DNA of 64,000 nucleotides. Source: Octopus vulgaris (lineage: Eukaryota). Below, in pieces: positions 3,088 through 55,340 of this stretch. How positions within the stretch are numbered: the stretch's first letter is position 1; every line of letters starts with the position of its first letter. The stretch lies in assembly GCA_951406725.2 (NCBI GenBank), contig OX597842.1, forward strand, positions 15,810,001-15,874,000. Reading direction: 5' to 3'. Below the pieces are notes generated by a model, which was not told the origin of the DNA, searched no databases, and saw only the letters and a list, made by a program, of their open reading frames with translations. The position numbers and the translations under genes were made by a program.

Positions 3088-3168
<81 letters not shown>

Positions 3169-3413: not shown

Positions 3414-3493
<80 letters not shown>

Positions 3494-4384: not shown

Positions 4385-4433
<49 letters not shown>

Positions 4434-4834: not shown

Positions 4835-4868
<34 letters not shown>

Positions 4869-7488
4869 CGCTTGTAAAAAGCGTAAATCGGAAAGAAGAA
4901 GCACACTCTAAAATATTGAGCAATACATATTCAAAATGGGGAAGGCTGGTTTATGGGATTACCTAAGGTTTCACATCCATTAAGGGTTTAGCTTTATGTC
5001 GTATTATCAGATCCGAAAACATGTTGGCTCAAGGCTTCTTAATACTATGGAGGAAGAAATGTCTCACAATGGGGATTATCTCCTTTGGCCATTGGCTATC
5101 GACTTCCAGCTGCACTGCCATCTTTTGGGCTCCAAAAGGCTAGCAAGAATTTCCTGAAGTGTAAACATGGCCCGAGAAGCTCTGTACTGGAGTTAAGGAT
5201 GTACCCTGGTTTGAGGGAGTCCTTTAGGATTTTCTCCCATTCTGCTATGCATAATTTACATCGTTGTGTACCGTTGATGTAAGGGCCTGGGTTTTCGAGA
5301 ATTTTCCATGAAATCAAGTATGGAATATCATTGTATCTCAGCTGCCATACTTGGCTGGCTAATGATGTCGCGTATCTCCTTCTCTGAAGAAAGTTCTTAG
5401 TTGGAGAGATATCGCTTGAAAGGGGTTCCCGGAACGTCCGATGTTTCCCCGTGGGCAGGTTCTGTCGGCGATGTGTCTATATCTGCCGTCATCGTTGGTG
5501 TTGGGGCTGGGTTGCTGGTTTTGGCGTTGTCGGAGGTGGTGATTGTGGTGGCGGCAGTAATGGTGTCGCCACTGTCGAGGATGGTGAAGATGCTGTTGTT
5601 GTTATTGTAGCCCTTATCATTGGTGGGAGAGAAGTCATTAACGATGGCTACGCTGCTGCTGCTTACATATACACACACACATAGATACACACATACATAC
5701 CAACATATATACATGCATACATACACACACATACATAAATACATACACACGCACACACATGCATACATACATATACACTCATGCATACATGCATACACAC
5801 ATGCATACATGCATACACATGCATACATACACACACAAATGTATGCGTACACATACACACATGCATACATACACGCATGCGTAAATACACGCATGCATAC
5901 ATACATACACACACATACACACATGCTTATATACATACACACACATGCATACATACACACACATGCATAAATACATACACACACATACATACACACACAT
6001 GTATACATGCACAAGTGAGATAAAATCATTGAGAGAAAGTTTACAGATTCTTGCTGCCATAACAAGCAACAAAATCTTTCGTCCTGTCTTAGAGCTGAAA
6101 CAGAATCTTCTTTGGAAGAAATTTGTTTCATCCCTCCATAATCAATACTAACAGAGGATGCTGCATCACACTGGGTCAATCTTAAGAATGTTTGCCTTTC
6201 AAAGATTATCTCCAAATCAAAAAATATTTTGTTTTGACAGCAAATCTCAGAAAACGTTTTTATGCTTCAATAATGCATAACGAATTGGATACATGGATAA
6301 AAATAAGAAGTTGTTGTTGGTTACTGCTGTCATGTTGTCATCCTGTTGTTCCACTGCTACTACTATGGCATCTTTGGATATTTAACCTGTCTGAAATTGG
6401 AAGAAATCGAGAAACAAAAACAGATCTGGAGATTTTAGGTAATTCTGAACTTACCCAAACACAGCATGATAAAAAGCTGTCCGACCCCTTGTGTCTCTCT
6501 TGTCCAAATCTGCTCCAGCATCTATTAACAAGTTTATTAAAACTATGTTGCCCTCTGCAGAAGCAGCCATCAGATAAGTTTTACCGTTTGAATCTCTTAG
6601 GTTAATCTGAAGTGAAGAAAGTAAAGGCTTTTGAAATATATCAAAGGAGAGAGAGAGGGAGGGGGAGCGAGAGAGAGATAGAGAGGAGAGAGAGCGAGAG
6701 AGAGAGAGAGGGGACAGAGAGAGTGAGAGAGAGAGGGAAGAGAGAGTCCTTGTAAAATTTTCCATTCCACAGCCTATTCCCATGGGTTGTACTACCCTCT
6801 TTGGGAAGCCCTGATCTATATTCTTCCTCACAGTATCCCATCTGCTGACTATTAATTTTTCAGATTTCAAGTAAAAAGTCATAAACAACCATCATCTTTG
6901 TTCCTTAAAAGTGAAAACAGAGGGAGAATAACTTTCTCTGTATATTCAATTGACACCAGTACAGTTGTATAAAGCTAGATCAAGCTGGGGTTTGATTCCT
7001 ACGTGACTCACCAGTATTTTCAAATGTTTGACAACTTCTGTAAAAGAAATCGTGTCGGCCCTATCACCAAGAAACCCTTGTTTGTGGCAAGAGAACTTCT
7101 TGACACCGTAATCACTCATCTAATGACCCGATCTACCTCTTGGACTGAGTATTTCCTGCCAGAATACTCCCTTGCAGTGTGTGATGATGGGCTTCTCTCT
7201 CCCTCACATTCCATCAACTCTGGCATGCTTCAAGGTTTGGTTCAGGATTTATAAAAACTACCAACGATGCAAAATAGTAGAAAGACGTGAAGAAAGATAT
7301 GAAATATGGACAAATACATGTGGTTCGTTAGGAAGATTTCAAATTGTGTATCAAATAATAAACAAATAACCAACTTTGAGAAGGCAATACAATGAACAAC
7401 TTACTCTGTCTGAACGGCTTTCTATCATGCTTTTCGCACCTTCGATGTCCCCAGATTCAATTTTCTCCTTGATTTTTTTAATGTCCAT
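1712..7488 (-). CDS. Gene A: spliced ankyrin-repeat protein, 5' part only (exons 7488-7405, 6606-6455, 3662-3500, 1869-1712); continues beyond window start
   Basis: All four exons have AG/GT boundaries and matching phases (0,2,0,2). Translation MDIKKIKEKIESGDIEGAKSMIESRSDR|INLRDSNGKTYLMAASAEGN...GRTAFYHAVFG|HQLQ...GFTLLHLAAGRG...|VNQRDNSFGATPLHFACFQGH...DGDTPLHLAVR contains repeated ankyrin G-x-TPLH-x-A motifs. Confidence 0.9.
2441..2523 (+). ncRNA. Degenerate hammerhead motif
   Basis: cttgtg-CTGATGA...CAAA-cgcg-TT-cacaag. Stem I is perfect but GAAA is mutated to CAAA. Confidence 0.45.
4537..4835 (+). mobile_element. tRNA-derived SINE, family 1
   Basis: A-box-like tggcccagtggtt and B-box-like ggttttgattc; inverted copy at 43692-43983, partial at 60415-60497. 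Confidence 0.7.
4870..5400 (-). mobile_element. Penelope-like retroelement 3' fragment (GIY-YIG C-terminus plus pLTR)
   Basis: ORF 5096-5317 ISWKILENPGPYINGTQRCKLCIAEWEKIL...LNSSTELLGPCLHFRKFLL matches the C-terminal CxLC...LN...CxH signature of Penelope-like endonucleases. A related pLTR fragment is at about 38350-38730 (+). Confidence 0.7.
4956..5014 (-). ncRNA. Degenerate hammerhead motif 3' of Penelope GIY-YIG ORF end
   Basis: Minus strand: ggat-CTGATAA...GAAA-ccttagg-TA-atcc; core has one mismatch (CTGATAA). Confidence 0.45.
5665..6012. repeat. (TACA)/(CA) compound microsatellite
   Basis: Directly visible; similar tract at 62570-62850. Confidence 0.9.
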
Positions 7489-30309: not shown

Positions 30310-33300
30310 TATACAAGTAACACACTCACAGGCAAGGAACACAGGTACAAGATTTTTGGGCAGGGAACACTGACGGGGTCGGGGGCGTGGGTATACTTCT
30401 TGCGGAGAAATGGGTAGATAAGGTAATCGAGGTAGTCAGAGTAAGTGACAGAGTAATTAAAATTAGATTAGTCATTCACCATAGTTCAGCTACCATCATC
30501 TCGGCATATGCCCCTCAACCAGGGCTACCGGAAGGACAAAAAGACCAATTCTATGACACCCTATTGCGGACTACCTCGTTGACATATGACAGTGACCTTC
30601 TCTTCGTGGCAGGGGATTTTAATGGACATGTTGGTCGGCATGTCGGGGGCTTCCATGGCGTTCATGGAGGCTACGGTTTTGGCTCTCGTAATGAGGAGGG
30701 AACCAGGCTGCTGGAGTTCTGCGATGCAAATGACCTTATGGTCTGCAATACCAACTTCAGGAAACCCACCTCTCACCTAGTCACCTACCGTTCTGGCAGA
30801 CACACTAGCCAGATTAACTACATCCTTGCCAGAAAAAGGGAAAGAGGGCTGCTTACAAATGCCAAAACCTTTCCAGGCGAAGAATGTACTCCTCAACATA
30901 GATTAGTAGTTAGCGACTTCAGGATCAGAGCTAAATGGTTGCCCAGAAGAAGACCAGCTTGGAGGAGAAGGGTCTGGAAGCTTAAAGATCCTGCAAATGG
31001 ACAGAGATTTAGAGACATATTACTCGAAGCCTTTGACAAAATAGAAGGGGATATAGCTTCATTTAATGTGGAAGACAACTGGAGATTTCTACGGGACAAT
31101 CTGCTGACAGCCACTGACCAGATCTGTGGATGGAGCAAAGTACCAGCTCGACCCAGAGTAACATGGTGGTGGAACACTGTGGTTGACAGGGCTATTAGAC
31201 AAAAGAGACAGGCTTGGAAGGACTGGAAGAACGGTGGTAGCAGGGAATTGTATCAGACAGCCAGAAGGGAAGCTAGGAGACAGGTTTATTTAGCCAGAGG
31301 GGAAGCGGATAAGAAAAAATTTGCCAATGTTCTGAGCCGTGAGGATGAAAGACTTGAGGTATTTCATGTTGCAAGACAGTGTGTGAGAGAGAATCGTGAT
31401 GTGGTAGGAGAGAAGTGTGTTCGCACGGATGATGGTTCACTTGCGCTAAATGAGGATGCAAAGAGAGAGGTTTGGAGATGCCACTATGAAAGGTTGCTGA
31501 ATAAAGAAAATGAATGGGATAAAGAGAGTCTGCCGAATGTCAACCCAACAGAGGGACCAGCCATCCGAGTTGAAAATTCTTTGGTAGTTAAAGCAATTAG
31601 AAGCATGAAGACAGGGAAAGCCCCAGGCCCATCAGGAATTACTGCAGAGATGCTCAAAATATCTGGCAGTGTCGGCTATAACCTAGTCACCCATATAGTC
31701 AACCAGGTGATACACGAAGGAGTCATACCGAATGACTGGTGTGGCAGCATACTAGTCAACTGCTACAAAGGTAAAGGTGATGCCCTAGATACAAATAATT
31801 ACAGAGGTATCAAGCTGTTGGATCAGGTGATGAAGGTTACGGAGAGGGTCATAGCCCAACTAATTAGAGAGGGAGTTAGTTTAGATGAGATGCAGTTTGG
31901 GTTCGTGCCAGGGAAAAGTACCACTGATGCTATATTCCTGGTAAGGCAGCTGCAGGAGAAATACCTGGCCAAAGATAAGCCCCTGTACCTGGCTTTCGTT
32001 GACATGGAGAAAGCCTTTGATAGGGTCCCCCGATCCCTTATCTGGTGGTCAATGAGGAAACTAGGGATAGATGAATGGCTGGTGAGGGCTGTGCAAGCCA
32101 TGTACAGAGATGCCGTAAGTAAGGTTAGGGTTGGCAACATGTACACAGAAGAATTCAAAGTAGAGGTTGGGGTCCACCAGGGTTCAGTGCTCAACCCCCT
32201 CCTATTTATCATAGTCCTCCAAGCAATTACGGAGGAATTCAAGACAGGTTGCACCTGGGAGCTCCTCTATGCTGACGACCTTGCTCTAATTGCTGAGTCA
32301 CTATCGGAACTGGAGGAGAAGTTCCAGGTGTGGAAGGAGGGCCTAGAATCGAGGGGCCTTAGAGTCAATCTAGCTAAAACCAAAGTCGTAATAAGTTGGA
32401 AGGTAGACAATCCACAAATGTCTTCAGGAAGATGGCCCTGTTCAATCTGTAGAAAAGGTGTAGGTAGAAACTCTATAAGATGTACCCAGTGTAAGCTATG
32501 GACACATAAGAGGTGCAGCAATGTCAAAGGTAGGCTAACTGGGAAGATAGTTTTTGTATGTGGCAGATGCTCGGGAGCATTAACCTCCGAAAATCTGCAG
32601 AAAACAACTTCCGTCACTTTCCAGGGGAAAAAAACTATAAGTTGTTGATAGCTTCCGTTATCTAGGTGACCAAGTCAGTTGTGGGGGTGGGTGCGCTGAA
32701 AGTGTAACTGCTAGAATAAGAATAGCCTGGGCAAAGTTTAGGGAGCTCTTACCTCTGCTGGTGACTAAAGGCCTCTCGCTCAGAGTAAAAGGCAGACTGT
32801 ATGATGCAGGTGTACGAACAGCCATGCTACATGGCAGTGAAAAATGGGCCGTGACTGCTGAGGACATGCGTAAGCTTGTGAGGAATGAAGCCAGTATGCT
32901 CCGATGGATGTGTAATGTCAGTGTACATACTCGACAGAGCGTTAGTACCTTGAGAAGCATCAGTTGTGGTGTGCAAGAGAGATGATTGCTCTGGTATGGT
33001 CATGTGGCGAGAATGGATGAAGATAGGTGTGTGAGAAAGTGCCAATCCCTAGCAGTTGAGGGAACCCGTGGAAGAGGTAGACCCAGGAAAACCTGGGACG
33101 AGGTGGTGAAGCACGACCTTCGAACTTTAGGCCTCACTGAGGAAATGACCAGCGACCGAGACCTTTGGAAATATGCTGTACGTGAGAAGACCAGGCAGGT
33201 CAAGTGAGCCCAGCCCACTTATGCATGCCTTTCCTCCCTTGGACACAAAGACCTGTTGAGGCAAGCGAAGTCGATATAGAACCTCATCCGATGACAGACA

Positions 33301-35207: not shown

Positions 35208-38200
35208 ACAGCGAATATCAGACAGAAAATTTCGGAGGATGACATTGAAGGGTTTAAAAAATTAATAAGAAAGGATCCAACAATAGTAAGTTGTTCTGTT
35301 TATTGCCTTCTCAAATTTGATTGTTTATTATTTTATACACAATATGAAATGTTTTATACACAATATGAAAAGTAGCCACATATATTGTTCCATGATATTT
35401 CATTTCTTTCTTCACTTCTTTTCTCTAATCCTCATCATCGACATTTTTCCCTGTCATCTGTAGTGGAGGAATTTAAAGTAGCGAAATGTAATGTAATGAT
35501 GTACAGAGACTCTAAGGACGAGCTTGTCAGACATGCAGGTATTACCACAAAGTGTGGGCAACTACCACCGCTGTCGCTCAGGCTGAAGGCATGCTGGAGC
35601 TACGCGCCATAATTGGAGCTACATGTTGGGGTCGCAAGGGACTTGGGTCTTCCTATTTCCAACAATAGAAGAAAGCAGACACCAGGGAGAGGCGGGCTAT
35701 GACTCAGAAAGCAATGTGGAACCAGGAGGAAGCTAAAAGGAAATCAAGAGCTGTGGAGTTGGTATCTCTGGGTGTATGGACTAAATGGGATCTCCCTGAG
35801 AGGAAGCTCACATGGACTGACCTGTGGAGGCTGGAACCTTTGCACATCTCCTTCCTGCATCGAGCGGTGTATGACACACTCCCGACACCATCAAACCTGC
35901 ACAGATAAGGTTTGAGGGAAGACCAGCTGCGTAGACTTTGTGGGAAAGGGGCACTCTGGCACACATCTTGGCAGGGTGAAGAATAACACTTTCTCAAGGC
36001 AGATACAAATACTTGCTCACAACCTGGAGCAGTAAAGGTGTAAGAAACATCATCACCAAGGGAAGATATCTGCCACAATTAAGTTCGTGAAAGAGGGAGA
36101 AAAACCAGTAAAGCCAGCAAAAGCAAAACATAGCTTGCTGCAAGGGTCTCAACCATGGGATATGAAGGTAGACTTAGGGAAGAGATTGCAGTTTCCCCAG
36201 GTTGTCCATACAACCCTGAGGCCTGATGTGGTCCTGTGGTCTGAAAAGGCTGAGAAAATTATCATAATTGAACGAACAGTCACGTGGGGAGCGGGTTGTA
36301 ACGAGGCCCATGAACGGAAGTGTGACAGATATAAGAACATTCTGCAGAATTGCAGGGAGAAGGTATGGCAGGTATGGATTTTCCTAGTGGAGGTTGGCTG
36401 TAGGGGATTCTTTGTCCAGTCGGCATGGAGGATTTTTACAGCAACTGTAATGAGAGGTAAGGAGGGAAGAGTGGGTGTGCACGGATGGGAGAGGCAACTG
36501 AAAGAGCCTTTTGCTGGCTTTGGTGTAAGAGAGAAGATTAACGCTGGAAGGCTTGAGGAGTTGAGGAGCAGTGAATTGGCCACCTCTGTTGACCCACCAA
36601 TGGTAGGGTGTTAAGGTTCAGGGTCGAAACATCCGATGAACGAGGGATAACATCTGACAACATTGGTTTCTCCTGGACAAGGCAACCATTCACTTTGGTG
36701 AATAGATAAAGCACATCCTTATGGGTGTTATTAACTCTTATATATATATATATATGTATGTATGTGTGTGTATACTGCCAAGCAGATGTGTGTGTATTAT
36801 TGAGTGGGGTTTGTGTGTATGCATGTGTATCTATGTTAGTGTGTGTCCCCAACTGCTAATTGATAACCGGTGTTGGTGTATTTGCATCCCTGTTACTTAG
36901 CACTTAAGCAAAAGAGGGCTAGAGGTTGCTGCTCATCAGACAGAAAAGGTACCACACATAAAAGACAAAATCAAGGAGGAGCCCCAGCATGGCCACAGTC
37001 TCATGACTGAAACAAGCAGAAGAGAGAAAGAAAAAGAAAGAGAAAAAAGAAGAGAGGAAGAGAAAAATAGAAGAAAGAAAAGAAAATATAGAGAGAACTA
37101 TAGAGAAGACGAAAAGAGAAAAGAAACAGAGAAAGAGAGAGAGAAAAAAGGAGAGAAAAGATAAAGAGAATGAGATTGGAAAAAGAAAACGAGAGAGAAA
37201 AGAAAGAGAGAAATGAATGAGTGGGAGAGAGGAAGAAGGATAAAAATAAAACGAGAGGGAGAAAGAAGGAGAGAAAAGCGAGAAAAGAAAGAGAGAGAGA
37301 AAAAGAAACAAGAGGAAGAAAGAGATGAAGAAGGGGGGGAGAAAGAGAGAAAGAAAACGAGAAATAGAGAAAGGAAGACAGAAAACAAAAGAGTGAGAAG
37401 AAGAAAGGAAAGAGAGAGAGAAAAGACAATGAGGAAATGAGAGAGAAAGAGAGAATAGACAAAGAAAACGAGCGAAAGAGTGAAAAGAAAAAGATAGAGA
37501 GAGATAGGGAGAAGGAAAAGCAGAAAATAAAAAGAGAGAGAAAAGAAGCAGAGAGGGAGAGAGCGAGAATAGAAAAAGAGGAAGAGAGAAAGATGGAAGG
37601 TAAGAGAAGAAAAAGGGACTGAGAGAAATAAAGAGAGAAAAAGGGAGAGAGAGAGAGAGAGAGAGGAAGAAAGAGGAAAAACAAACAGTGAAAGAGAGAG
37701 AAATGAGAAAGAGATGGATAACGAGACGAAAAAGGGATAAAGAGAATGAGAGAAAAGAAAGAGGGAGAAAGAGAGAAAAGAAAGGGAGAAGGCAAGAGAG
37801 GAGAGAAAAGAAAGAGGGAGAAAGAGAGAAAAGAAAGTGAGAAGGCAAGAGAGGAGAGAAAAGAAAGTGAGAAGGCAAGAGAGGAGAGAAAAGAAAGTGA
37901 GAAGGCAAGAGAGGAGAGAAAAGAAAGAGGGAGAAACAGAAAAGAAAGAGGGAGAAAGAGAAAGAGAGAAAGAGAGAAAAGAAAGTGAGAAGGCAAGAGA
38001 GGAGAGAAAAGAAAAAAGTAAGTCCCTTAAAGGGAGAAAAGGAAAAGAGGGAAAGAAAAGAAAAAGGAAATGACAAAGAGAAGAGAAAAATTGCCAGAGA
38101 AAAGAGATAACAGAGAGAAAGAGGAAGAGAGAGACAAAGAGAGAAAGAGGGGGAAAAAAGGAGAGAGATAAAGAAGAGAGAAAAGTAAAGCAGGAGAGAA

Positions 38201-39303
38201 AGTGATAAAAGAAAAGAGAGATAAAAAGAGAGGAAGGAAAGAAAGAGAAAGAGAGAACAAATACTAAGAGACATAGAGAGAGAGAAAGATAGAAAGGAAA
38301 ATGTGAGAGAGAGAGAGAGAAGAAGAAAGAGAGAGAAAAAGAAAAGAGAAAAGCGTTTCTACATATTCACTGAAACCACGGGTCTCCCATAAATATGAAA
38401 GAATTTGCCTCGGATACTCTAGCAATAACATCCCCACGTCATCCAACGAACTATACACCCGTATGCAGCTGGAAAAGCTATTGGACGTGATTAGGCGTAT
38501 GAGGTGAAGGGCTTTTCTACCCTCCATATTTGGAAGAGGTCTTAGGCCAACAGGTTTTGGGGTCTAATGATACGCCATGAAGCTAAATCCTTTTTGGACC
38601 GGAGACCAAGGGTAATCCCGGAAACTGGCCTTCCCCGGTTTTAAAATATACACTGCTCTACATCTTAGAGTGTGCTTCTTCTCCGGATTTATCTTTTCTG
38701 CAAACAAAACAAATATATACGTAGGTATGTCATTATTCAGTTTATTTCCAGATATTCTATTTTTCACTTTATGTCAACATCCGCTGGACAGCTAATTCCC
38801 ACAACTGTGAACAGTTTCTCTATATATGTATGTATGTATGTCTGCACACACACACACACACGTTGTGATATAATTGTCACTTAGTCTACCTCAGGAATTT
38901 CAGGGTTTTTTGAGTTTTATTACAAATGGGGGATTGGGAAATGGAGTATTGACCCATTTTGCATCGGACCCTTGTGGTTTGGATGTGTTGCATCCTCCGG
39001 TACAGATTCATTGCATCTGGTGTCTTGTTTTACAGAAGAAACCTCACTAAATATTCTCGGTTTCGCTTGGCATGTTGTTGCCAGGAGGTTGTTGGCTATA
39101 ATGCTATAATCCAAGAACCTACTGACAACAACAACATACCAAGCGATACCGAGAACTCTCCCACCCACAAGGAATCGATGCAAGATGGGTCAAACCAATT
39201 GTTGTGATGAATAAATTTTCTCGTGAACTTCATTTTACATATTCCTCATTCAACATATATATTTATATATCCAACAGTAATGTATATAAATCTCTCTCTC
39301 TCT

Positions 39304-39343
<40 letters not shown>

Positions 39344-40002
39344 AGTGTGTTTCTGTGTATGTGTGTGTGCACACGCATTAATTTCATGGGGGTGGACACT
39401 AACCACCTCAACAGTTTTATGAACTTCTTATTAATTATAACAACATCAAAAGTATACTTTAGAAATTTTAATTCTTCTTTACTAGTCTTGATCTGTTAAT
39501 CATGTGTTCACTCGTGTTCAGCTCCCCTAAAACTTACTATAGTTAGGAATAAAGGTAGATTAAGCTGAAACAATCTATTTAGGACATCTTTATCCTGTCT
39601 AGAACACATTCTCAAAGCAACATCTAGAGGATCTTACGAAGGTTAATTTTACGGAAAAACATCAAATGTACATGATCAGTTTGATCAAGTATACAGTAGA
39701 AGACAATAATGACACATTGATATCCATCCTGATTTTCATGTAAATTTTCATTTTCTATTTTTACTTCCACATAGCGTTCAGTTCAGTTGGATATTCAGAA
39801 CAAAAAGAAAATGACACCATTGCTTGAAGCCGTTTCCCGGGGTCACCTCGGAATGACACACAAGCTAATAGCCCTGGGTGCAAGCATAAATGCTGTTGAT
39901 GGTGATGGTAACAGCTGTTTGCACCTTGCCGTGAAAACAGAAGTGTTTAATTCCGAGGGTGCACCCATGGATTTACTAAACGAAGTAAGTTTTTAAATTG
40001 TT

Positions 40003-40135: not shown

Positions 40136-43100
40136 GTGTGTGTGTGTGTGTATATGTGTGTGTGTGAATTTGTGTATTTGTGAGTCTTTGTGGGAGTGTG
40201 TGAGAGAGACAGACAGACAGACAAGCTTTGCGTGTCACGTATCAATTCTCCCCTATCAACCCCATCCTCCATTACCATTCCGGGATCTAGTCTCCCCTTG
40301 TGACCCGAGTGATATTATGTAACAAACAATATTCCATCTCCTTTCACTCTCAAAGATGTCATCTCACCACGGTCGAGAGGTGACCCTTCTCAGTTGTTGG
40401 ACATATAAACACAGCCATCACAATGTGACGGAGAAGTGGACTATTTAATAGAGGAGATATTATTCTCAATTAACAATGATGCAGGATAGAAGAGATGTCT
40501 GAGCTTTATAGTGCTGGTGCCATGGTAAATACAGCCAGTCCATTCTATGAAGTATTCTGAGTGAAACTGCTCTCTATCCTACTTCTTGTACACGACATGA
40601 ATCCACTGTCTTCTTGTGGACATATCATAAGAATGTTCAATGTTAGGACACTAGAGAATGAATACAATAAAGCATGGTCCTTAGTGAGATTTCATGTATT
40701 TAAGTTCTGTACTTAAGCACACACACACACACTCATGCACACAAACACACACTCACTCACACACACACACTCACACAGACAAACACACACAAGTAGAGAT
40801 TTTGAGTTTGAGTATATATCTTGTAAAATGCTGTTTAAAGCCCGTTTACTGTATTCGGCTATCTGATGTCATCAACAATATAGACTTCAATTCTACTGGA
40901 CTTTTTGCTGTCATCTCAAAAATGAAGCAGTTTTTTATAATTCTTATATTTTTCAAAATTAAGATAAACAAAGTACTTTTTTCTGTTAATCTAAAACATA
41001 TTCTCCTTCATTTTCTACAATGCTCTTCCATCTATCTGGTAGACTTGCAAGTCGCCTCTTCCAAAATTCACTTGTCCGTGATTAAAAATACTCCTCCATT
41101 ACTTTTCTGACTTGACACTAATTCCTGCTTCCTTTACTTTACCGTCATCATTCAAAGATGCTTCTTGCTTAATTATGGAAACATTATTGATATGTTTGGT
41201 CATGTCTGTGTGGTATTGACTTTGTTATGTTATAGGTGTTTTTGTTTCTGATATAACTTATGTTCTATCTTCTCATGTTGTGTTATATTTATATATACAA
41301 TACTCTTTCTTATGGCCACACGGTCGCCTTTATCAAGCCAATTATATAGATAGGTTCTTGTTGGTTTGTTCTTCTTATATTTGACTTTTCTATTGAATAT
41401 ATTGTGATATTTGTGATTGACAAGTAAATATTTACTCATTAATTATCAATAAGCTTGATGTTAATCAATACGGTTTGTCCTGCTCAATGTAATGACAATA
41501 TATTTAGAGGTTGTCTCAGTGTTGAAAATAAAGTAAAAACATAAAAATGGGAAATGGACTCAATTAAAGATTATGTAGGAACTCAATACTTTGTAATTGC
41601 TTTAATTAGTGGATAAACAACCTATGAGTAAATTTAGATGAACTTTTGTGTAATTAGGGGCATTTGTTTTGAATATTTGTGTAATATTTTTATCATTTTA
41701 TATTTCATTATTTGTAGTGCTTCACTGCCCTTAACCTGAAAATAGAGAAAAGGCTCTCTGGTATAGTGGTTGCAAGATATCTCGCCAGCCAGGGAGCTGA
41801 CTTTCACCATAAAAACAACAAAAATAACAGACCATTGGACCTCATTAAGGACCCAAATTTGAGAAAAAAATTAGAAACATTTTCACCATCACAGTAAGTA
41901 TTTCCTGGCAATGGAACGGATAAACGAGTACATTTCCTATTTTGTATATAATCATGTTTATATGTTTATTTCGTTTTAATTCTACCAATACATTATACTG
42001 TCGCTAGTGTCTTTGTCAAAGGCCACACAATAAACAATATGCAGTTGTTAGGAGATCAAAGAAAGAACACGATTTTGATTACATTCACATGATTCGTAGT
42101 GTTGACATTTATACTTCACTGTCCATCACCACCTACCCCTCTTCGTTCCCTATTTTAAAGATTTGTGATCAATAGGAAAATATAGATCTAAATAATGAAG
42201 TGAATGAATTCCATTTTGAAACTGTTACTTAGAATTAAGTGGAGTTTATCTGTCTACCAACATCTTTTTCTCACTCTTCTATGTCTGAATCAGTCACTAT
42301 TACGAATGATTTCATAGAAAAATAACCTACAAACACACACCAACAGTGTATATATTATATTTCTGCAAATACTGATGGAATATTGCCACATATCTTCATA
42401 GAAGAAAAAAAACTGCCTGGAAACGTAAATAATTCAAGTAACACATATACCATTACTAGGTGTTTTAGTCGCCTTTCACTCCCGTATTTTATAAGATTTG
42501 GCAATTTCTTTGCCATACATCTCTCTGTATTAGCTACTTAAGAAGCAGACACATTTCCCCCTCAGTGAATATACAAAACTTTCTTTGTCTGTTGAAATTC
42601 AAATATTACTTTTTACTTGTTTCAGTCATTTGACTGTGGCCATGCTGGAGCACTGCCTTTAGTCGAAAAAAACGGCCCCAGAACTTATTATTTGTAAGCC
42701 TAGTACTTATTTGCCGAAACGCTAGATTACGGGAATATAAACACACCAACATCGGTTGTGAAGCGATGGTGGAGGGACAAACACAGACAGACAAATACAC
42801 ACACAAACACACACACATATATATATATATATATATGTGCGACGGGCTTCTTTCAGTTTCCCTCTACCAAATCCACTCAAAAAGCTTTGGTCAGTCCGAA
42901 GCTATAGTAGAAGTCACGTGCCCAAAATGCCACTCAGTAGGACTGAACCCAGAACCATGTGGTTGGTAAGCAAGCTACTTACCACACATCTACTCCTGCG
43001 CCTATTGTTCATAGATATTGATTTTTGGATTGTATAAATATTGATCTGTTTTCTTCAATTGACAAGCTTCAGAAGATTTTATTTGCTTTTACAAATAATC

Positions 43101-43688: not shown

Positions 43689-46600
43689 ATCAAGTGATCA
43701 CGTGACCGACCAGTCCATCAGATGTAGTTACACATCGCTGGTCACAATGCATTCGCATTGTTTTAGCCTTCGAATGACGCCACCCCGCTGGCTAAGCGAG
43801 CAGGCCAACAGAAGAAAGAGTGGTGAAAGAGTACAGCAGGGATCACCACCCCCTGCTGGAGTCTCGTGAAGCTTTTAGATGTTTTCGCTCAATAAACACT
43901 CACAATCCCCAGTCTGGGAATCAAAACCGCGATCCTACAACCGCAAGTCTGCTGCCCTAACCACTGGGCCATTGCGCCTTCGCATATATATATATATATA
44001 TATATGATAGATATATCATCATCATCATCATCATCATCATCGTTTAACATCCGTTTTCCGTGCTAGCACGGGTTGGACAAAAATATATATAAGTAATATT
44101 CGTAGGCACGCCAACATGAATATCTGTTCGAATGGACTCTACTGTGAATGTTTAACCCCAAGAGAACAGCTCCTCTAGCTAATTAACGATGCAAAGGTGC
44201 ATTGCGAGCAGGGGATCAAACCCCTACCATCTTATAGCAACAGGACCAGCAGACCAGGTCTGGTTTCGGGGTATTCCTGCCACTCTTCAGTACTGGACAC
44301 CTCATCTGCTAATCTGTGGAGACGGGATGTATATAATAAAGTGTATATAATAAAGTATGTGTCTATAAAGAAACCTGTGTAGATATATTTGTTCAGAAGA
44401 AATGAGTTCGATGTTAGAAGTGAAATATATTTCTGGAATATATGCAGTTCACTGTGTGTCAACCAATTTCTATGATGTATCAGGGTCAAGACAAACATTT
44501 ATCAATGTATGTATGCATGTGTGTGTATGTATGTATGTGTGTGTGTGTGTGTGAGCATGCCATTTAACTACACAAATATCTGTATGTATGTAATTGTTTA
44601 AAGAAGAGTTTCTGCTCTACTCTTGGTAGTTACTGATGTATCTTATAATATTCTCTATTCCGAACATGTAAATAATGTAATATTTGTTATAAATGAATGT
44701 TATTGATTGGATGTTTCTGTTTTGTCCACAGATGTTTGCTGTGCAGAAATAAAACGGCCACAACAAAAGCCCATCCATGTGGACACCTTGTAATATGTAA
44801 GGGATGTTCAAACGTTCCACTTCAACAATGTCTGAAGTGTTTAAAACCTGTAATAACAAGCAGAGGTCGAGTTGGTAAGAATATTCTTTGCTGATCTGTC
44901 TGTTTGTCCTCATTGTCCCACTGCCCTTATTGTGTAGAATAATATACTTCATGTTGTTATGTAGGCAGAGGTCTGCCATAATCTGGCAGATTTATGATGA
45001 AAGGTGTTCCTAGTGTCTGTTCTCCGTAATAGTATATCTCTCACACTACATACACTAAACATTGACCTTATCCAAGTAGGAAACATGTCACACTTCAAGA
45101 GGGTTGTAGTCTGCAACATAAAGATAATGGAGGATTCTGCAAGATAATTAGTGAGTAACTGAAGTATCAATAAATCCCCATCAACACTATAATTAATTGA
45201 GTTGTTAGAAGATAAGTAAATACAACAGTACTTACAAGAACATCAGTGTCATCTTTGGTAAAGTATTAAATTCAGTAGAATATTTTAAAGGAGTAAAATT
45301 AGATGTCACTAGTTTGAGAGACTTTAACACACAATTCCATGTTGTTATGTTTGTAATTGGAGGATATTAAGGCTAATAGAGACAGTTTTGTTTCTCAAGC
45401 AACCAGATCATGAAACCTTCAAATATATCCTGAATGAGATGACATTCTGGTGAACTGTGAAGTTAAAATTAGGAATTATCAGCAACAATGTTTAACAAAG
45501 AGATTAGGTGTATGTTTCTCCTTCTTGAAGTGGTTGTGACATGTGTTTGTTGTTATATCTTTGATAAATAAATTTGTTGACACTGGAATTAAACAGGTTG
45601 TTAGTGAAGATTAGAGTTTTGAGAATACATTTAGGGTTATAGATATAAGCAAGGAAACCAAAACCTACAGATTAACTGTTATTAAGTGATATAATTACAG
45701 CATTGTTAGATTATGTAGGATATCTTAACAGAGAGGGGAAATTTACAAAGATCAACTAGAGTTCGTTTTGGAGCTAAATATTGGCTATTACATGGGTCCA
45801 CTGTTGAAAGTATAAAAATATTGACCAAAACAATTATGATCGCTGGTTGGCCATTGATGATATGAATGTCTCTCAATAATGAAATATAGATTATTAATAA
45901 ATATAAAGAAATTGTGCTATAAATAAATATAAAACTTGGAAATACATATTTCAGAGAGTCCAAAGTTTGAAGAGAAGGGAGTGCAGACTGTGGCAGAGAC
46001 AGTTGATGAGTTTAAAATAAGAACACTTAATTAATTTCTATAGATTTTACATTCACCTCAGCTATTTTGCTTATTAGAATGGTCGAGAACAAATCCCATC
46101 TCTAATTTCCATTTGAAAGGTTAGCTCTAAAGTAATTGTATTAAAAATATTACCGAAATTTCATAAAGTCGGGGTTAACATGTTTGGTAAAATGGATAAA
46201 TTAAAACCCACAATAGAGTTAATATTGTCTTCTGGAAGAGGGAACTATAATTTATTATTTTTTTTAGGTGTAAACTCGTGAGTTAAGATAGTTGTTTGTT
46301 TTTCTACTAAGATCTTTCGTAAGTTTTCTGATAGGTTATTCTTGATGTTGTTATGTAGCCAGATGTCTGTCGTAATATGTTGTATTTTCTGGGGCTGTGT
46401 ACCCTGAATGTCTCTGAATTCTAATTAAATATTAACTCTGTATAAGAATATTCATCATGAACTTAATTTTATTAAATGTTAAATTTGGTATTGAACCGTG
46501 AACATCTGTTTGCATTTAAACAAATTATTGGTGTTTATACAAAATATACAAACGGAAATTGAATATAACTTGAATACACAAATCCTTGTTTGTAACTATA

Positions 46601-49600
46601 TATAATATACACTTATTACATTGTTTGAACAACATTTACCATCCATATAGTCATTCTTTTTCTCACACTTGTTAGATTTTAGATGATATTAATGCTAAAA
46701 GAGGCACAGTTTTCTGAGTGTTTCACCCTTTGGTCTTGATTGTTGCGTTCAAATTATTTAATGAAAGATAGTCATTGTTATTTGACCAGGAAATAAATTA
46801 TTCATTAGTATTTGGCAGTGGACTTGGTTATATCTTTCTTCGTTTGCTCATGGAACTACCATAATATTAGCTGTGCTGAGACACAGTCATATTCATAGTA
46901 ATGAAGGCTATATGTTCTTTACTCAGATTATATACAATCTATATTGATATCTAGTATTGCACCGTCAAGCACAGTGCCATTGTATCACATATATACCCAA
47001 TTATCATGATAATTAATAAGCTATAATTCATTAACTCTCTTACATTTGTATGTATGAATTGTAAACTGATTTTGTCATAGGAACATTGTATACCACATTA
47101 CATTTTATATCTTGTTAGGGATCATGTTGGGGAAGGGTGTATGGAATTTGGCTTGTGGAGATGATTTTTAAGGGGCAGATTGTGTGCGGGGTGGAGGGTA
47201 TGCACATAAAGGACATGTCTTTATGGGCTCAGTTTTACTTAATTAGAGAGGAATGTTGATTAGTGAATTCTAGAGATGAGAGGACAGTGCCATGCCATAG
47301 ATTTGGCACAGTTATAAGAAAAGAAAAACAAAGCTAAGAGAAAACTGTTATCAAGTGTTAATTAAATGAGATAATTGGTACATTGTTAGAATATTTAATG
47401 TCTTCTTAGAGAGAGAGAGAGAGAGAGGGTGGATTTAGAAATGTTAGTCTGTTTTATTGTGGACATATTGGGCTATTACATGGGACCACTGTAGAAAGCA
47501 CAGAAATATTGACCAAAACCATAATGGTCAACAATTGACCAGTAACGGCAGGAATTGAATGTCTCACAATAACAAGATAGAGTTTAATAAAAATAAAGAT
47601 GAAGAAAGTTTATTATTAAATGTAAAACTTGGAAATATTTATTTCAGGGGCTCCAAAGTTTGAGGACAGGTGTGTACAAACGGAGGCTACATGTCAGGAA
47701 TTAGGGGCTGCATCTCAAGCAATAGGTGAGTATGAAATAATAGTTTCCAATTGATTTCTGTAAGGTTTTCTTCCCCCGAGTATATTGTGCTTGAAAGAAT
47801 AACTGAAAAAAGCTTCCATTCCTCTTTTCCAATTGAACGATTATCCGTATAATAATTGAATTAAAGATATCGATTTACTGAGAGTTTATGAAATTCCCAT
47901 TGAGGTTAATGCTGTTGGTAATAATGTTCAAATTAGAAGACACAATAGAGTTAATATTGTCATTTGGTGACGGAACGCATCATCATCATCATAATCATCA
48001 TCATCGTTTAACGTCCGTCTTCATAGTAGCATGGGTCGGACGAATTCAATGGCAAGGCAGTAGGCTGCGCCAGGCTCCAATGTGATATTGCAAGGTTTCC
48101 ACATATGTATGCCATTCCTAACGCCAACCACTCCGAGAGTGTGGTGGGTGCCTTTTACGTGCCACCGACACAGGAGCCAGTTGAAGTGGGGGCTGGTATT
48201 GACCACGTTCGGATGGTGCTTTTTACGTGCCAACGGAACAGGGAACCAGTCAGGCGGCACTGGCCACAAACAACGTTTGAATGTTACTTATTACGTGCCA
48301 CCGGCACGGTTGCCAGCGAGGCGGCACTGGCATCGGCCATAATTACAATTTCCATTTTGATTTCGATCTTGATTTGATTTTGATTTGTGATTTCTGGTTT
48401 TTGGTTTTACTTGACTCAGAAATTCTTCTCAAGCGCAACTTATCACTCTGTGATTCAAGGGTACTTTTAAAAGGGGCTGGTTATGCGACACTGGTATAGG
48501 CTACAGCTTTGATCTCACTTCACTTGCCGGGTCTTCTCAATCACATCATATTTACAGAGGTCTCTGTCTCTTGCCATTACCTCTGTGAGGCCCAACGTTC
48601 GAAGGTCGTTTCACCACGTCATCCCCTGTCTTCCTGGGTCACCCCTTTCCACGGATTCCTTCCACTGTGAGGGTGTAACACTTCTTTCCACAGCTCTCCT
48701 CATCCATACACATGACCATACCAGTGCAGTTGTCTCTCTTGCACACCACATCTGATGCTTCTTATGTCTAACACTTCTCTCAGGCCTCTTCACTCTGCAT
48801 TGTGTGCACACTGACATCGTTGGGTTCAAATTATTTAATAGAATATGGTCATTGTTATTTGACCAGGAAATGAATTAATCGTTAGTATTTGGCAGTGGAC
48901 TTGGTTATATCTTTCTTCGTTTGCTCATGGAACTACCATAATATTAGCTGTGCTGAGACACAATCATATTCATTGTAATGAAGGTTATACGTTCTTTACT
49001 CAGATTATATACAATCTATATTGATATCTGGTATTGCACCGTCAAGCACAGTGCCATTGTATCACATATATACCCAATTATCATGATAATTAATAAGCTA
49101 TAATTCATTAACTCTCTTACATTTGTATGTCTGAAATGTAAACTTATTTTGTCATAGGAACATCCTGTACCCTCACTTAACATTTTACACCTTGTTAGGG
49201 ATCATGGTGGGGAAAGAGTGTATGGTTTCAAGGTTGTTGGGGATGTTTTTTCGGGGACAGATTGTGTTCAGGGTGGAAGGTATGCACAGAAAGGACATGC
49301 CATGATGGCCTCGATGTTACTTAGCCAGTTGGGTCTTTTCAAGCACAGAAAATTGCTGATTGTCTCAGTCGTTTTTGTTATCTTCCCGTGCGAAGCTCAG
49401 CATCTGAACATCATTTCTCACCACTTTGTCCCATGTCTTCCTCAGTCTTCCTCGTCCTCAGATTCTCTCCACATTTAGAGATCCGCATCTCTTTATGCTG
49501 ATCACCTCATCCATATGCATCACATAACCATACTATGAAAGATCTCTCTTTTGAACTCTACATCGGATGACTCTTATACCCAGAATTTCTCTTAAGACAT

Positions 49601-52600
49601 TTCCACTGTGACTTACCTGAACACTGATGTTGTACATCCAGTGGAGCATGCTGGCTTCATTTGTCTCCGACCCTTTGCATGTCTTCTATCTTCACAGCCT
49701 ATCTTTCATTATTGTGTTGTACATCTGTCCGTACACAGGTCTCATACAATTTGCTTTCCACTCTTAGGGAGAAGCCCTTCATTACCTACAGAGTGGGGGC
49801 ATTTGGGACAGTTAATCTTGACTATTGGTTATAGGAATATTTCACAATTATAAAATATCGATGTTCATTAAAGAAATTTTACTATAAAGTATAATCTTAG
49901 AAATATTTATTTCAGCAAGGCCAATATTTGAAGACAAAGTGGTCCAGACAGTGGAAGAGCCACGTGGTGAGTATAGAATGACATTACATAATTGATTTCT
50001 ATAAATTTTAGCATTTACTGAGCTATTTTGGTCAATAGAATGACCGAGAACAGGTTCCACTGCTACATTTCATTTGAATGCTTAGCTATAAAGAAATTCT
50101 GTTCTTCTACAACAACATGAATATCCAATAAATGTACTTTATGCAAACATCTGTTACTCATTCACTCGCAGAAAGAAAGATACAAAAATTGAATATAAAC
50201 CCTGAAACCGTTCTCTCCCGTTAAGGAGAATATTCGCCCTGTTTGTCATCTCATTGTACTCATTCATTCTCTCTCTCTCACTCATGCTCTTTCTCTCCGT
50301 CTTTTCAAGAAAGATGCTGGTTAATAGTTTCAATACAATAAATGATATCATCCTCATCCTTTCTCATCTGCTCTCCATGCTCCCATACACTAGGTGGGTC
50401 ATCACTGTCCAAGTCAGTTGTATCTGAAATTACTGCCAACCGTCATTTGTTGAGGAAAACATCTCACTTAAACATTGCAGCTTTTCTAAGGTGGTAGACC
50501 CTTTCTAACCCCAACCACTTTATAAAGGGTCCTGGGTATATTTTATTGTCGTACAAGCATTAGAAATGATCATCAATTTCCCAACAATATGAAACGTTCC
50601 TTTCAAACTTGTGGTGTCATCTTTCCTAGTTTCCACCAACCACTTCCTAGTGTGTTCTGGGAGCATTTAATTATAGCACAAGTAGTAATGAAGTTGTGTT
50701 ACATTCTATATAATTAGACGGTCCTCACTATTCTATGATGTTTTGGTTCACTGAAGCTGATGACATTTTCAGGAGGTGAGAAGGGAATGTGATGACAAAA
50801 GAAGCAGGATGCGGGGAGAGAAATTTGCAATACCCCCTCTCTCGGCTGTGGGGTCTTTGTCTTACATGTCTTTTGGCTAAATATGCCAGTACTTGTGCTT
50901 TATAAAAAGGGGCCACGTACACTCTGTGAAGTGGTTGGCATCAATAAGAGCATCCTAACGTAGAAAACCATGCCAAAGAAACCATCTGGGGCCTGGTGCA
51001 GTTGTCTGGCTTGTCAGATCCTGTCAAGATTTCCAACCCATTCCAGCATGGAAAACAAACTTTGAATGTTGATGATGATGATGATGCTGTCTTCCAGTAA
51101 CTCATCATAATTCTTTGTCTTCGATTGTTACAGTAGTTTCCTGTCTGGTATAACATATTAGCTCAGTATAATAATATTGATTGAGAAAACCGGTTCAGTG
51201 ATTTTGATAACATTCATATTGAACAGAGAACATATGTTCACATTTGAACAAAACATTGATGCTAGCATATGCAATACATGGAAAGGAATGAACGTATGAG
51301 ATTCCAGTGTGACTTGAACTTACAACTCTTTTCTAACTATATATATATAATTATCGCTTGTTACAATGTTTGTATAACGTTTACTGTCCATATATAGACA
51401 TCGTTATACTGAAAATTGTTGGCTTTGAGATGGTTTCCATTGTAAGAGAGTCACTGTTTTCAGTCTTCCACATTTTGGTTTTACTTCCGACTTGATTGTT
51501 ATGTTGAAATTAGATCATGGAACCTGGTCATTGTTATTTGACCAAGAAAAGAATTCATCATTAGTATTCAGTACTGGAAATGGTTACATTTTTCTATGGT
51601 TTCTCATGGAACTACCATAATATCAACTGTGCTGAGACACAACCATATTAATTGTAACAAATGTCACATGTTCTTCACACAGATTTTATACAATCTATAT
51701 TGATAGTTAGTGTTTATACGCTGCATTAACATGATAATTAATCAGCTATCATTCATTAACTCTCTTAAACTTGTCTGTCTGAAAGTTTCATAGCATTATC
51801 TTGTACCCTCATCTAATATTTTACACCTTATTACCCTCAAAGTAAACATAACTTTTACATGGGTACACAACCACATCCCTACGAACTAGTTTTACAGCTG
51901 TATGCCCTTCCCACAATAATAAAGTGTTGATTATCAATAACTATAATGAAATTATACTATAAAACGTAAAGCTTGAAAATATTCATTTCAAAGACTCCAA
52001 CGTCTGTGAAGGATGCCTTAACAACATCACAGCCAGTTGGTGAGTAGCAAATAACAGTACCTCATGGATTTCTATAAATTTAACCTTCACCTGAGTATTT
52101 GTAGTTTATCAGAATGACTGAGGACAAGATTCATTCCTAATTTACATCTGAAATATTAGCTGTATAATAATTCTATTAGACATTTTGATATCAATGGAAT
52201 TTCACAAAATATCCAACGGGGTTGGCATGGTTCGGAAAATGGATAATTTAGAAGACAATAGAATTAATACTGTATCTTAAAACGGAAGACTAAAATATGT
52301 AGTTACTAAGTTTACTGATAGGTTATTGCTGTTGTTGCTATTTAAGCAAATATCTCTCATAATGTGACAGATTTACAATGAAATGTGTTCCTTATGCGAA
52401 CACCCTGCCTTTTTGTTTTCACTGATAATAAATTTATCATTACATCCCCTAAACATTGTCTTTATCCATGTAAAAGTATTAGGTTTGATGTTGAGACAAC
52501 CGTCCTCTCTCTCTCTCTCCAAGATAGACACTGATGACCCTCATCATTTATCATCTGATGTCTATGCTCCGATCGATTGGATGGATGATTCCTATCCATG

Positions 52601-55340
52601 TCAGTTCTTATTAACAAATACTGTCCGCCTTGATTGGATGAGGAACACATTCCGGCTTTTCTATGGTGATGTGCCTTTCCTATCATCAACTGCTTTAAAA
52701 AGTCCTTGGGCACAATTTTGCTCCAAAAGCACTAGAAAAATGATCATGTTGTCAACAAAATTAAACGTTCCTCTTTAACTTCTACAAGGAAATTCTGTTT
52801 GCAGATACTGAGAACAAAGCTAAAATACAATAAAGATGAACTGGATGGATATATGCAGGAGATCCAAAGCAAAAGCAATGATTCCCATTCATAGACAGTT
52901 TGAAATGTCCATTGAAACCAGCAATCAAATACCGATTGATTAGTTCAGACTAATTTCAACCTTGAATATAAATGGCGAGATTTACAAGGTTGTACTCACA
53001 AAGAGATCAACTGTAAATCTACAGAATAATGAATATGGGACTAAAAGTATCTTGAAGACTGGAATCCTCTGGCATTCCAGGCTGTGTGGAACATGTGTCT
53101 TAAATCTAGGATGTGATACAAGACGGAAAGAAGAATAAAAGGGATTGAATGTTGTGTGATTTGATCTGGTTTATGGTTCTCTAGCAAACAAATTGTTGAT
53201 GGAAGCAGTGGACCTGTTTTATATATGAGAAAAGATTAAGGATCTGATGAGGAGCTGCTATAACAATTTCAATATGCAGTTCATGAGGAAAACTTTCTCG
53301 GCAGACTGGTATCATTTTGAAACGGGAATTGCTGTAGTTTCTACAAAATCAGTCATTTGGTTTGTGATTGTTATGGAGATGTTACTTAAATCAGCAGATT
53401 GATAAGAAATGGCTCAAAGGAAAACACTCGAGAAGACATTAATGGATTACATAACAATAGTAACAACAAATAAAAGGATATGCAAATAGTTCTGGATTAA
53501 CTGGGTAGACTGAGGAACTTGGTGAAGAATGTGCTTCAATGCAAATGGGTAATGAAGCCCGTCATTTGTGAAAGGTCAGCAGAAACAAGTGAAGGTCAAA
53601 ATAGCAGGAGAAACCCTGATGAAGTTTAAAGGGAAACTTGAAAAACTATTACGACGATGGTAAACTACCTAATTTTGCAATAATAGTAAAGGCATTGAGA
53701 TCAGTCACAGAACGAAGATGGGTTAAAAGAAATAAATATGCCAAACATTCTGGAAAATAAAAGATTTGGAGCTCGCACTTTGTATTCCCGTCTTTCTTAT
53801 ATATTTTTGAGTATCAGTCCTTTTGTACCATTTCAGATGTCTTCACTGCAATAATGTGTAGATGTCCAGTTGTATGTAGTTAATGGGGTTTTGTACAAGT
53901 GTGCAGTGTTTTAGGACACCTGATATCACTTTTTGTTTCATCTGTGGAGAACTGATCATTGCTCACCTTTATTAAGGAGTCTTAAAATATTCCCTGCACC
54001 AGATAATGACCAGGTGATCTGGGATGTAGGATGATAAAATTCAAGATTTTCCAACAGCAAAGAGAACTGGTATTATGTTTATTTTACTTGAAGTGGTGTG
54101 TCATGCATTTGTGACGAGATCTTTGGAGACCACATTGGATGATATTGCACTTTAGCAGAAGATGAGGAGAATGGTGGTTAGTGAAGTCTAGAGTTCAGAG
54201 GACAGTCGCATGTCATAGATTTGGTTCAGATATATGAAAGGAGAGATAGAACTATGAGAAGAAACAGTCTCATGAAATGATAATTAAATGAAATAATTGC
54301 AACATTGTTAGATTATGTAGGATGTCTCTGTTAAAGAGAAACAAAGTTTCGGAAAGTTAGTCTATTTTGTTGCGGGCCTAAATATTGAGCTATTACATGG
54401 TCCCACAATGGAAAGTATAAAAATACTGAGCAAAACCCTAGTGGTCACCAGCCAACCACTGTTGATAACAATGTCCCACAACAATAAACTACAGAATATT
54501 TATAGAGATAAATAAGTTTTACAATAAATTATATAACTTGGAAATATTTATTTCAGAGAGTCCAGTTCTGAAGGTGAGGGATCTTCTGAGAGTGGCTAAG
54601 AGGTTAGGAAGTGATTGGTGGCAAGTGGGTGAGTATATTTAATTTCTATATATTTTACTTTCACCTCATCAATTTTATTTGTCAGAATGAATGAGAACAA
54701 GTTACATTCCTCATTTCCCATTGATAGGTTACCTGTATGACAATTTTATTTACGATATTCCTGATATTTCATAAAATATCCACTGAGGTTAGCATGGTTG
54801 GTAATAATGGATAAACTAGAAAATAGAAATGGCGTTTAATATTATCTTTTGGAAGAGGGAACTAAAATATATTGTTTAAGGGTAAACAGGTGAGTGAATT
54901 TGTTTTACATTTTCTTTAGGTTCACTGTTAGGTTATTGTAATGAAGGACAAGTACCAAAGTTAACATCTAAAACAAAGCATCTTTCTTCAAACAGAAGAC
55001 TTTGAGTTTGGTTCTTCTTGCAGCCATTATTTATTGGGTTATTGTGTTGGAAGCTGATAATTCCAATTTAGATTGTACACAGCGTTTTATATTATTGTCA
55101 ATGTTGTTGCATTTATTTCTTATTGTTGTGTCTTTTGCAGCTATTTGTTTAGGAGTTGATACAACTGAACTGAAAATTGATGATGAGTCTATTGACACTG
55201 TAAAACAAGGCTACCTGATGCTTCACGAATGGTTTAAAAATTGCGACCCAGAAACACGGACACACGCAACATTAAGTGCAGCTCTTGAAGAAGCTGAATG
55301 TTTCACTGCGATGGAATGTCTGTCATTAGACGCAAAGTGA
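35208..55340 (+). CDS. Gene B: ankyrin repeat - C3HC4 RING - death domain protein (exons 35208-35285, 39775-39984, 41718-41893, 44732-44874, 47648-47725, 49916-49966, 54557-54628, 55141-55340; conditional exons 45955-46005 and 51992-52039)
   Basis: Canonical AG/GT sites and compatible phases give one open frame to TGA at 55338-55340. Ankyrin motifs MTPLLEAVSRGH and GNSCLHLAV; RING CLLC-x11-CGHLVICKGC-x7-CLKC; death domain LLRVAKRLGSDWWQVAICLG...QGYLMLHEWF...ATLSAALEE. The start codon is not securely identified. Confidence 0.85.
35450..36700 (+). mobile_element. Hero/R2-group non-LTR retrotransposon 3' remnant (restriction-like endonuclease)
   Basis: YDTLPTPSNLHR, CRLCG, RPDVVLWS...IIIERTVTW...AHERK..RY...VEVGCRGF; several stops. 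Confidence 0.8.
37020..38352. repeat. Polypurine low-complexity tract with 30-bp tandem unit (gaaaagaaagtgagaaggcaagagaggaga)
   Basis: Almost pure A/G on the + strand for about 1.3 kb. Confidence 0.9.
44732..44874 (+). CDS. RING finger exon of gene B (IAP/Mind-bomb-type C3HC4)
   Basis: CLLCRNKTATTKAHPCGHLVICKGCSNVPLQQCLKCLKPV; cag acceptor at 44729-44731, gtaaga donor at 44875. Confidence 0.88.
47979..48817 (-). mobile_element. RTE LINE 3' fragment
   Basis: Reverse complement resembles 32900-33700, including the (CAT)n tail. Similar fragments at 62902-63535 (-), about 49300-49800 (-), 50890-51085 (+) and 8362-8459 (+). Confidence 0.8.
52960..53790 (+). mobile_element. Highly degenerate non-LTR RT remnant (Hero-like)
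   Basis: GIPGCVEH, ETGIAV...SVIWFVIVMEMLL and MDYITIV fragments resemble RT motifs; many stops. Confidence 0.5.
54557..55340 (+). CDS. Death domain of gene B, two exons (54557-54628, 55141-55340)
   Basis: Spliced ESPVLKVRDLLRVAKRLGSDWWQVAICLGVDTTELKIDDESIDTVKQGYLMLHEWFKNCDPETRTHATLSAALEEAECFTAMECLSLDAK* fits the death-domain pattern (LGxDWxxLAxxLG ... Q xx ML xx W ... T xxx L xx AL). Confidence 0.85.

Follow-up and report, generated by a model that had tools for sequence, protein, structure and literature searches.

We analyzed a stretch of 64,000 nucleotides from Octopus vulgaris (assembly GCA_951406725.2, contig OX597842.1, positions 15,810,001 to 15,874,000 of the forward strand), hereafter the window, which holds a member of an expanded octopus gene family combining ankyrin repeats, a RING finger and a death domain. 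Between the RING exon and the first death-domain exon lie copies of a short linker exon whose K-x-V-Q-T motif is a putative docking site for the dimeric hub protein LC8. The features of this gene are the following:

35209..35285, + strand: homologue of the first coding exon of the family (tblastn to residues 3-28 of the database protein P0029), with a donor after 35285; there is no ATG where the paralogues start, and the 5' end is approximate.
39775..39984, + strand: ankyrin exon, containing the start of the database protein P0002 (domain search, comparison with P0002).
41718..41893, + strand: ankyrin/cap exon (comparison with P0002; contig joint 41893>44732).
44732..44874, + strand: RING finger exon, zf-C3HC4_3 (Pfam 29.6 bits, cut-off 27).
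45955..46005, + strand: L1, linker-exon copy with the motif EEKGVQTV and an AT donor, a pseudo-exon (splice sites, contig joints, comparison with P0002).
47648..47725, + strand: L2, live 78-nt phase-1 linker exon with the motif EDRCVQTE, the best fit to the LC8 rules (P0002, contig joints).
49916..49966, + strand: L3, live 51-nt phase-1 linker exon with the motif EDKVVQTV, in which Val at +2 is unfavourable (P0002, contig joints).
51992..52039, + strand: L4, 48-nt linker-exon copy with a CAA acceptor and no QT, a pseudo-exon (self-comparison, splice sites).
54557..54628, + strand: D1, first death-domain exon, 72 nt, phase 1, a paralogue and the likely source of L1-L4 (self-comparison, domain search, structure model).
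55141..55340, + strand: D2, last coding exon, with the remaining death domain and the stop codon (domain and profile searches, comparison with P0002).

The join of 39775-39984, 41718-41893, 44732-44874, L2, L3, D1 and 55141-55340 forms one open frame, which contains P0002, labelled in the database as Octopus vulgaris MIB2-like, letter for letter. In P0002 Pfam recognises ankyrin repeats and a zf-C3HC4_3 RING, together with a Death domain that stays below threshold. The C3HC4 pattern is complete, with all eight zinc ligands present; in the RING of some paralogues the His is replaced by Asp or the first pair is absent. In the proteins scanned the Pfam Death match lies at E 0.001-0.05, below the cut-off, and the model of this part is helical and confident. 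The C-terminal domain is a death domain as judged from its predicted helices and its sequence likeness to solved death domains, since the last-exon profile matches those of ankyrin-3, Fas and RIPK1 at E 2e-4 to 4e-3; unlike these, it belongs to an octopod-specific sequence subfamily with named close matches in Octopus and Argonauta. The gene carries two motifs (Q175 and Q201) and not three. With the last Cys of the RING at residue 153 and the death domain starting at residue 208, the last motif is nearer to the death domain than to the RING. In a model built on a 50-sequence alignment, residues 160-206, which form the linker, have a predicted local distance difference test score (pLDDT) below 50 and no secondary structure, while the ankyrin and death-domain parts are confident; the motifs sit in a region predicted to be disordered.

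Self-comparison of the window raised the number of homologous units from three to five, all between 45.7 and 54.9 kb, and profiles made from the intron flanks only recover exactly the same five. The flanking introns are about 63-78% alike, and the exons measure 51, 78, 51, 48 and 72 nt, all multiples of three with phase 1 at both ends. A sequence-only reading of the window had noted three peptides with an LC8-type anchor. All three were found by translation on the + strand, starting at 45955, 47648 and 49916, but only two of them correspond to usable exons, as L1 (45955-46005) ends in G|ATGAGT and not G|GTGAGT, and the anchor described as TQT reads VQT. Across all six frames, the window has 3 matches to the pattern P.FE[ED][KR].VQT, and none of 20 base shuffles has any; the matches are duplicates of one unit and not independent events. 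The looser pattern [KR].[TVIS]Q[TV] gave 15 matches, inside the range of 9-23 in the shuffles, so that in raw DNA the motif by itself is no commoner than expected by chance.

The state of the splice sites recurs among the paralogues, with the AT donor in 8/8 of the L1-type copies found and the CAA acceptor in 13/13 L4-type copies. L1 is omitted from P0002, which equals the join of the other exons, and no joint entering or leaving it occurs among all 10 listed joints of four contig sets. The joints RING>L2, L2>L3, L2>D1 and L2>L2 were seen in contigs (among the 15 of 42 joints listed in one comparison and all 10 in the other), loose ends of the RING exon run on into L2, and contig depth over L1 is like that of introns (7-92), compared with 280-5565 in the L2 bin. 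These contigs come from public runs without an RNA label, so their RNA origin is presumed, and since they pool paralogues and cannot separate them, the joints speak for the family and not for this copy. In several paralogues (L003, L011, L016, L021) the L3-type exon has a CT donor, and in the isoform P0041 the reading frame runs through an exon of this kind into a stop, so that the protein keeps the motif without a death domain. L1 could in principle act likewise as a read-through exon, although no joint into it was seen.

In the genome, the last death-domain exon has 132 matches (150 of 154 candidates scored), and a splice-context pattern blind to the motif gave 233 matches, the first 100 of which were listed, versus 7 for a control pattern. 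Units were collected from the 10 kb upstream of 112 of the 130 last-exon matches outside the window, 18 mostly stop-containing tandem matches being dropped, and from 8 extra stretches hand-picked after the last-exon and splice-pattern matches had been seen. Intron-only profiles made 373 calls, which were reduced to 299 units after removal of out-of-register calls and duplicates; one dropped out-of-register call contains EKEIQTE. About 210 of the 299 units are linker copies, and 169 of these have intact splice sites and frame. The named close homologues belong to three species of Octopus and to Argonauta; of 83 new matches in one search, 10 were looked up. The suggestion that the number of motif exons is variable was borne out, as 41 database proteins contain 0-3 motifs, with three in P0036 of O. 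bimaculoides, and predicted isoform models of one locus differ by linker exons (P0003-P0005, P0019-P0020, P0030-P0034). The models P0016, P0021, P0035, P0042 and P0043 join the RING to the last exon, skipping the D1-type exon, and represent either real isoforms with a disabled death domain or annotation errors.

A short-period subfamily has a linker exon every 166 bp, in up to seven copies (L036, L053, L054, L088, L094, L100), and thus the most exons per gene. It shows fast change at +1 and recurrent Q>K, and its 36-nt versions delete the motif in frame. The Q>K variants in P0008, P0009, P0012 and P0029 read VKTE and VKKE, matching the SUMO consensus psi-K-x-E and placing an extra lysine next to the RING.

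The linker exons are tandem paralogues of the first death-domain exon, and the homology extends into the introns. Mean intron distances are 0.398 between linker units, 0.326 between death-domain units and 0.373 between the two kinds, and the exons share a register (S-x-K-L-E-E-K-D-L-L-x-V-A in the death domain, S-P-K-F-E-E-K-x-V-Q-T-V-A in the linker). Several linker types still measure 72 nt like the death-domain exon, and one type, which lacks QT, is a decayed copy. Because the death-domain exon supplies helix residues of an old fold, and because the same segment is present, free of these motifs, in more distantly related octopod death-domain proteins, we infer that it was the parent and that the linker exon is derived. 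The unit tree is poorly resolved, with 6/43 inner branches starred, and in an approximately unbiased (AU) test it neither shows nor rejects a single origin of the QT-type exons (p-AU 0.52).

Conservation was compared across one representative of each of 23 diverged linker types (intron p-distance 0.40); this position test excluded 31 more units that carry deletions or frameshifts, among them 12 motif-less ones with intact splice sites. Pairwise amino-acid identity reached 0.75 at Q0, 0.68 at K-3, 0.68 at V-1 and 0.61 at T+1, followed by 0.48 at E-5, 0.43 at P-8 and 0.18-0.39 elsewhere, with the wildcard position -2 (0.19) and positions -6, +3 and +4 (0.18-0.23) at the low end. The set -3/-1/0/+1 ranks 1 of 1001 four-position sets, and these best-kept positions are those of the published LC8 motif. 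The PxFE part of the core, which had been described as uniformly kept, did not hold up (F-6, 0.23). A pairwise codon test of selection, with random representatives at four clustering thresholds, showed that motif codon positions 1-2 differ by 0.19-0.21, versus 0.38-0.40 in introns and 0.39-0.40 at other exon positions, and motif third codon positions by 0.54-0.57. The median P of 0.003-0.011 (worst draw 0.036) is approximate, since under the null the intron columns are taken to be exchangeable and the types independent. As codon positions 1-2 of the motif change little and third positions are saturated, the constraint acts on the protein; the same saturation rules out an exonic splice enhancer as the cause of conservation. 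Within types, outside the short-period subfamily, the contrast was not significant (motif 7 changing/6 silent, other positions 34/11, P 0.17).

In the death-domain exon-1 copies the motif-position set is not special (P ~0.55), and the residues kept there are L-6, E-4, L-1, V+2 and A+3. Constraint has shifted from helix-face residues in the death-domain copies to the LC8 positions in the linker copies. Residue -4 is D/E/N in 20/23 linker types, and residue +2 is D/E/P in 11/23, compared with V in 49/54 death-domain copies. Because three types came from the hand-picked loci, the codon test was run again with all 8 of those loci and the window removed, leaving 139 copies from the 112 anchored loci. 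The preferential conservation of the motif among paralogues, proposed as a check of the LC8 idea, stands for K-3, V-1 and Q0, the top three in both data sets, and for T+1 only in the larger one.

The match to LC8 can be judged from the published rules, which are cited here as given in the available passages of each source. The motif is [D/S]-K-X-[T/V/I]-Q-[T/V]-[D/E] (PMC3078936), with Gln at 0 as the anchor, a large or basic residue at -3, a polar one at -4, no aromatic at -2 and a preference for D/E/P at +2 (PMC6607443). L2 meets all of these rules, and both L2 and L3 have the anchor [TSVI]-Q-[TV], a large or basic -3, a polar -4 and a non-aromatic -2. Tested binders with a VQT anchor include ZFPM1 (SDKGVQTP), SON (CVSVQTD) and MAST1 (PMC6607443), gephyrin EDKGVQCE is cited as a binder (PMC12057147), and Bmf EDKATQTL binds LC8 at 0.75 uM (PMC3078936). 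The family motifs EDKGVQTD, EDRCVQTE, EDKETQTL and EDKASQTE are near these validated binders. Dimeric display raises LC8 binding 80- to 500-fold (PMC3078936), and in KANK1, sites too weak singly can bind LC8 cooperatively (bioRxiv 10.1101/2025.07.16.665182). The genome contains an intact 89-residue LC8 gene (open reading frame L121:1489-1758). A complex prediction with two copies of octopus LC8 and two of P0002 163-208 gave a median of 0.57, with one control at 0.72, and is not used either way.

On balance we lean towards the view that the linker exons have been retained as putative LC8 docking sites, which would pair two chains between the RING and the death domain. Tandem copies of a unit formed by an intron and the first death-domain exon now encode a predicted unstructured linker, whose K-x-V-Q-T would dock LC8 by adding a beta-strand at the groove of the LC8 dimer, a mode of binding established for other clients. 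The 0-3 or more sites per protein would set how easily chains pair, and thereby a threshold for ligase activity and death-domain clustering. Site number would shift when an exon is gained, a splice site is lost or a point change destroys the anchor, and probably when an exon is skipped. A broader scheme is put forward more tentatively, namely that a duplicated death-domain helix exon was re-selected as an LC8 motif and that the family, with more than 100 putative sensors, may gain, lose, mutate and skip exons with one motif each so as to dial LC8-driven pairing and its signalling threshold up or down. If true, this case would allow one to follow how a short linear motif arose out of part of a globular domain, with the parental exon still adjacent to its derivatives in dozens of genes and a measurable change in the residues kept by selection. 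It would also offer a natural series, from 0 to 3 or more sites and from strong to dead, for the control of a RING ligase and a death domain by LC8 valency.

Several results weigh against retention for LC8. Each linker exon had been credited with an LC8 motif; there is one motif per exon, but 2/4 of the linker units here are splice-dead, and the anchor [TVIS]Q[TV] is kept in 80/169 splice-intact copies and absent in 89/169, with [KR]x[TVIS]Q[TV] matched by 79/169 and the fuller LC8 rule by 40/169. Among 94 loci with a D1-type exon, motif exons within the 10 kb examined numbered none in 51, one in 23, two in 18, four in 1 and seven in 1, all lower bounds, and 20/41 database proteins have no motif. 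The short-period subfamily keeps the anchor in 20/69 copies and has 21 amino-acid-changing versus 3 silent variants at motif positions, a pattern of relaxation or tuning and not of conservation. Many copies, including L3, have Val at +2, as does L1, which is unfavourable according to the passages available of PMC6607443, where DAZL DRSIQTVV showed no binding and 7/19 predicted peptides bound. Part of the resemblance is inherited, since the death-domain exon frequently has K-3 and E-4 too, and given the poorly resolved tree the linker types are not fully independent. In the repeat test the median P was 0.010-0.022, with worst draws of 0.05-0.13 and a rank of 3-6 of 1001, and T+1 (0.43-0.50) was no better kept than E-5 (0.51-0.57) or P-8.

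The copies without an anchor, the persistence of splice-dead types in many genes, the intron-like rate of change at non-motif exon positions and the absence of constraint on the motif in the short-period subfamily would all suit near-neutral spacers, in which an early copy chanced on KxVQT and its descendants still show it; the one origin of QT-type exons that this implies is not rejected by the tree. We nevertheless consider it unlikely, as shared ancestry fails to explain why codon positions 1-2 change little when the third positions of the same codons are saturated, or why position -2 inside the motif is free. Conservation also reveals a constraint and not the partner, and K-x-V-Q-T might have been selected because something else reads it, be it a different binding protein or a protease, of the host or of a pathogen, that cuts after Gln and frees the death domain, a tripwire logic known from NLRP1 and CARD8. 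The recurrence of Q>K in several types and the wide variation of +1 in one subfamily are what a bait might show, but the conserved set coincides with the four published LC8 positions, with a polar -4 and frequent D/E/P at +2, and most types keep the site instead of diversifying it, so we hold this to be distinctly improbable.

About half of the family proteins have no motif and retain the RING and the death domain, and LC8 pairing is therefore not obligatory. This would also be compatible with LC8 binding that localises or sequesters the protein without dimerising the RING or the death domain; we judge this very unlikely, because clients that dimerise or form ladders have this layout, with tandem sites in a flexible linker, in the passages available of bioRxiv 10.1101/2025.07.16.665182 and PMC3078936. 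There is least to expect from linker copies acting as mutually exclusive alternatives to D1 that yield variant or disabled death domains, a scarcely probable arrangement in spite of the shared phase and origin and of the isoform P0003, which joins a linker exon directly to the last exon. P0002, P0005, P0011 and P0036 contain linker exons plus D1, the contigs show L2>L3, L2>L2 and L2>D1 joints, and helix residues are lost in the linker copies.

Docking of LC8 would place the family beside the multivalent LC8/DYNLL clients ASCIZ, Chica and KANK1 (its linker L2), which, as far as the available passages describe them, likewise carry tandem K/R-x-[VTS]-Q-T motifs in a linker without a confident fold between folded domains; the single-site VQT binders ZFPM1, SON, MAST1 and gephyrin have a similar motif. 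Unlike these clients, the octopus proteins have one motif per symmetric exon, the exon is paralogous to a death-domain helix exon, copy number varies among paralogues and no coiled coil was noted; LC8 binding is here predicted from sequence. A search of the listings of open-licence PubMed Central and bioRxiv literature found no description of the family, no LC8 binding to a MIB-like ligase and no exon-duplication origin of LC8 motifs, and the available passages of bioRxiv 10.1101/2023.09.15.557927 and PMC11431876 contain no account of the family or of this origin.

The order of ankyrin repeats followed by a zf-C3HC4_3 RING, and the MIB2-like label, recall Mind bomb (MIB1/MIB2). A Foldseek search gave no match at E <=0.001, the best being the ankyrin region of MIB1 at E 1.3e-3. 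Mind bomb proteins have an N-terminal Mib/Herc2-ZZ region, repeat substrate-binding domains and several RINGs, whereas the octopus proteins have a single RING and a C-terminal death domain, and no Pfam match to Mib/Herc2, ZZ or the repeat substrate-binding domain was found at E <=1 in P0002, P0008, P0011 and P0036. Judged on domain content, the family is not Mind bomb. A single-sequence fold of P0036 had a mean pLDDT of 33.6.

The copy in the window is without the middle ankyrin exons of longer paralogues and without the usual start codon (35209-39775), and the intron in this interval contains a retroelement remnant and a 1.3-kb GA-rich tract; the O. sinensis models P0006-P0009 begin at the same residue as P0002. 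Stop-containing copies of the last exon lie in tandem arrays (G000:C1:216930658-216965055 and C1:102708612-102732827), and P0077, an O. bimaculoides protein similar to adhesion G-protein-coupled receptors, has a terminal death domain that belongs to this sequence subfamily. Additionally, a second family member is represented by its first four coding exons at 7488-1711 on the minus strand (89-96% identity to P0040), and its linker and death-domain exons fall beyond the window start (L030). A lone last death-domain exon of another subfamily is found at 19790-19570 on the minus strand, with no D1-type, RING or ankyrin exon found upstream of it in the window, and is either an orphan fragment or part of a gene with long introns. 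Long open reading frames, which by eye resemble a long interspersed nuclear element (LINE) endonuclease/reverse transcriptase and a transposase, occupy 30321-32982 (+) and 29397-28720 (-).

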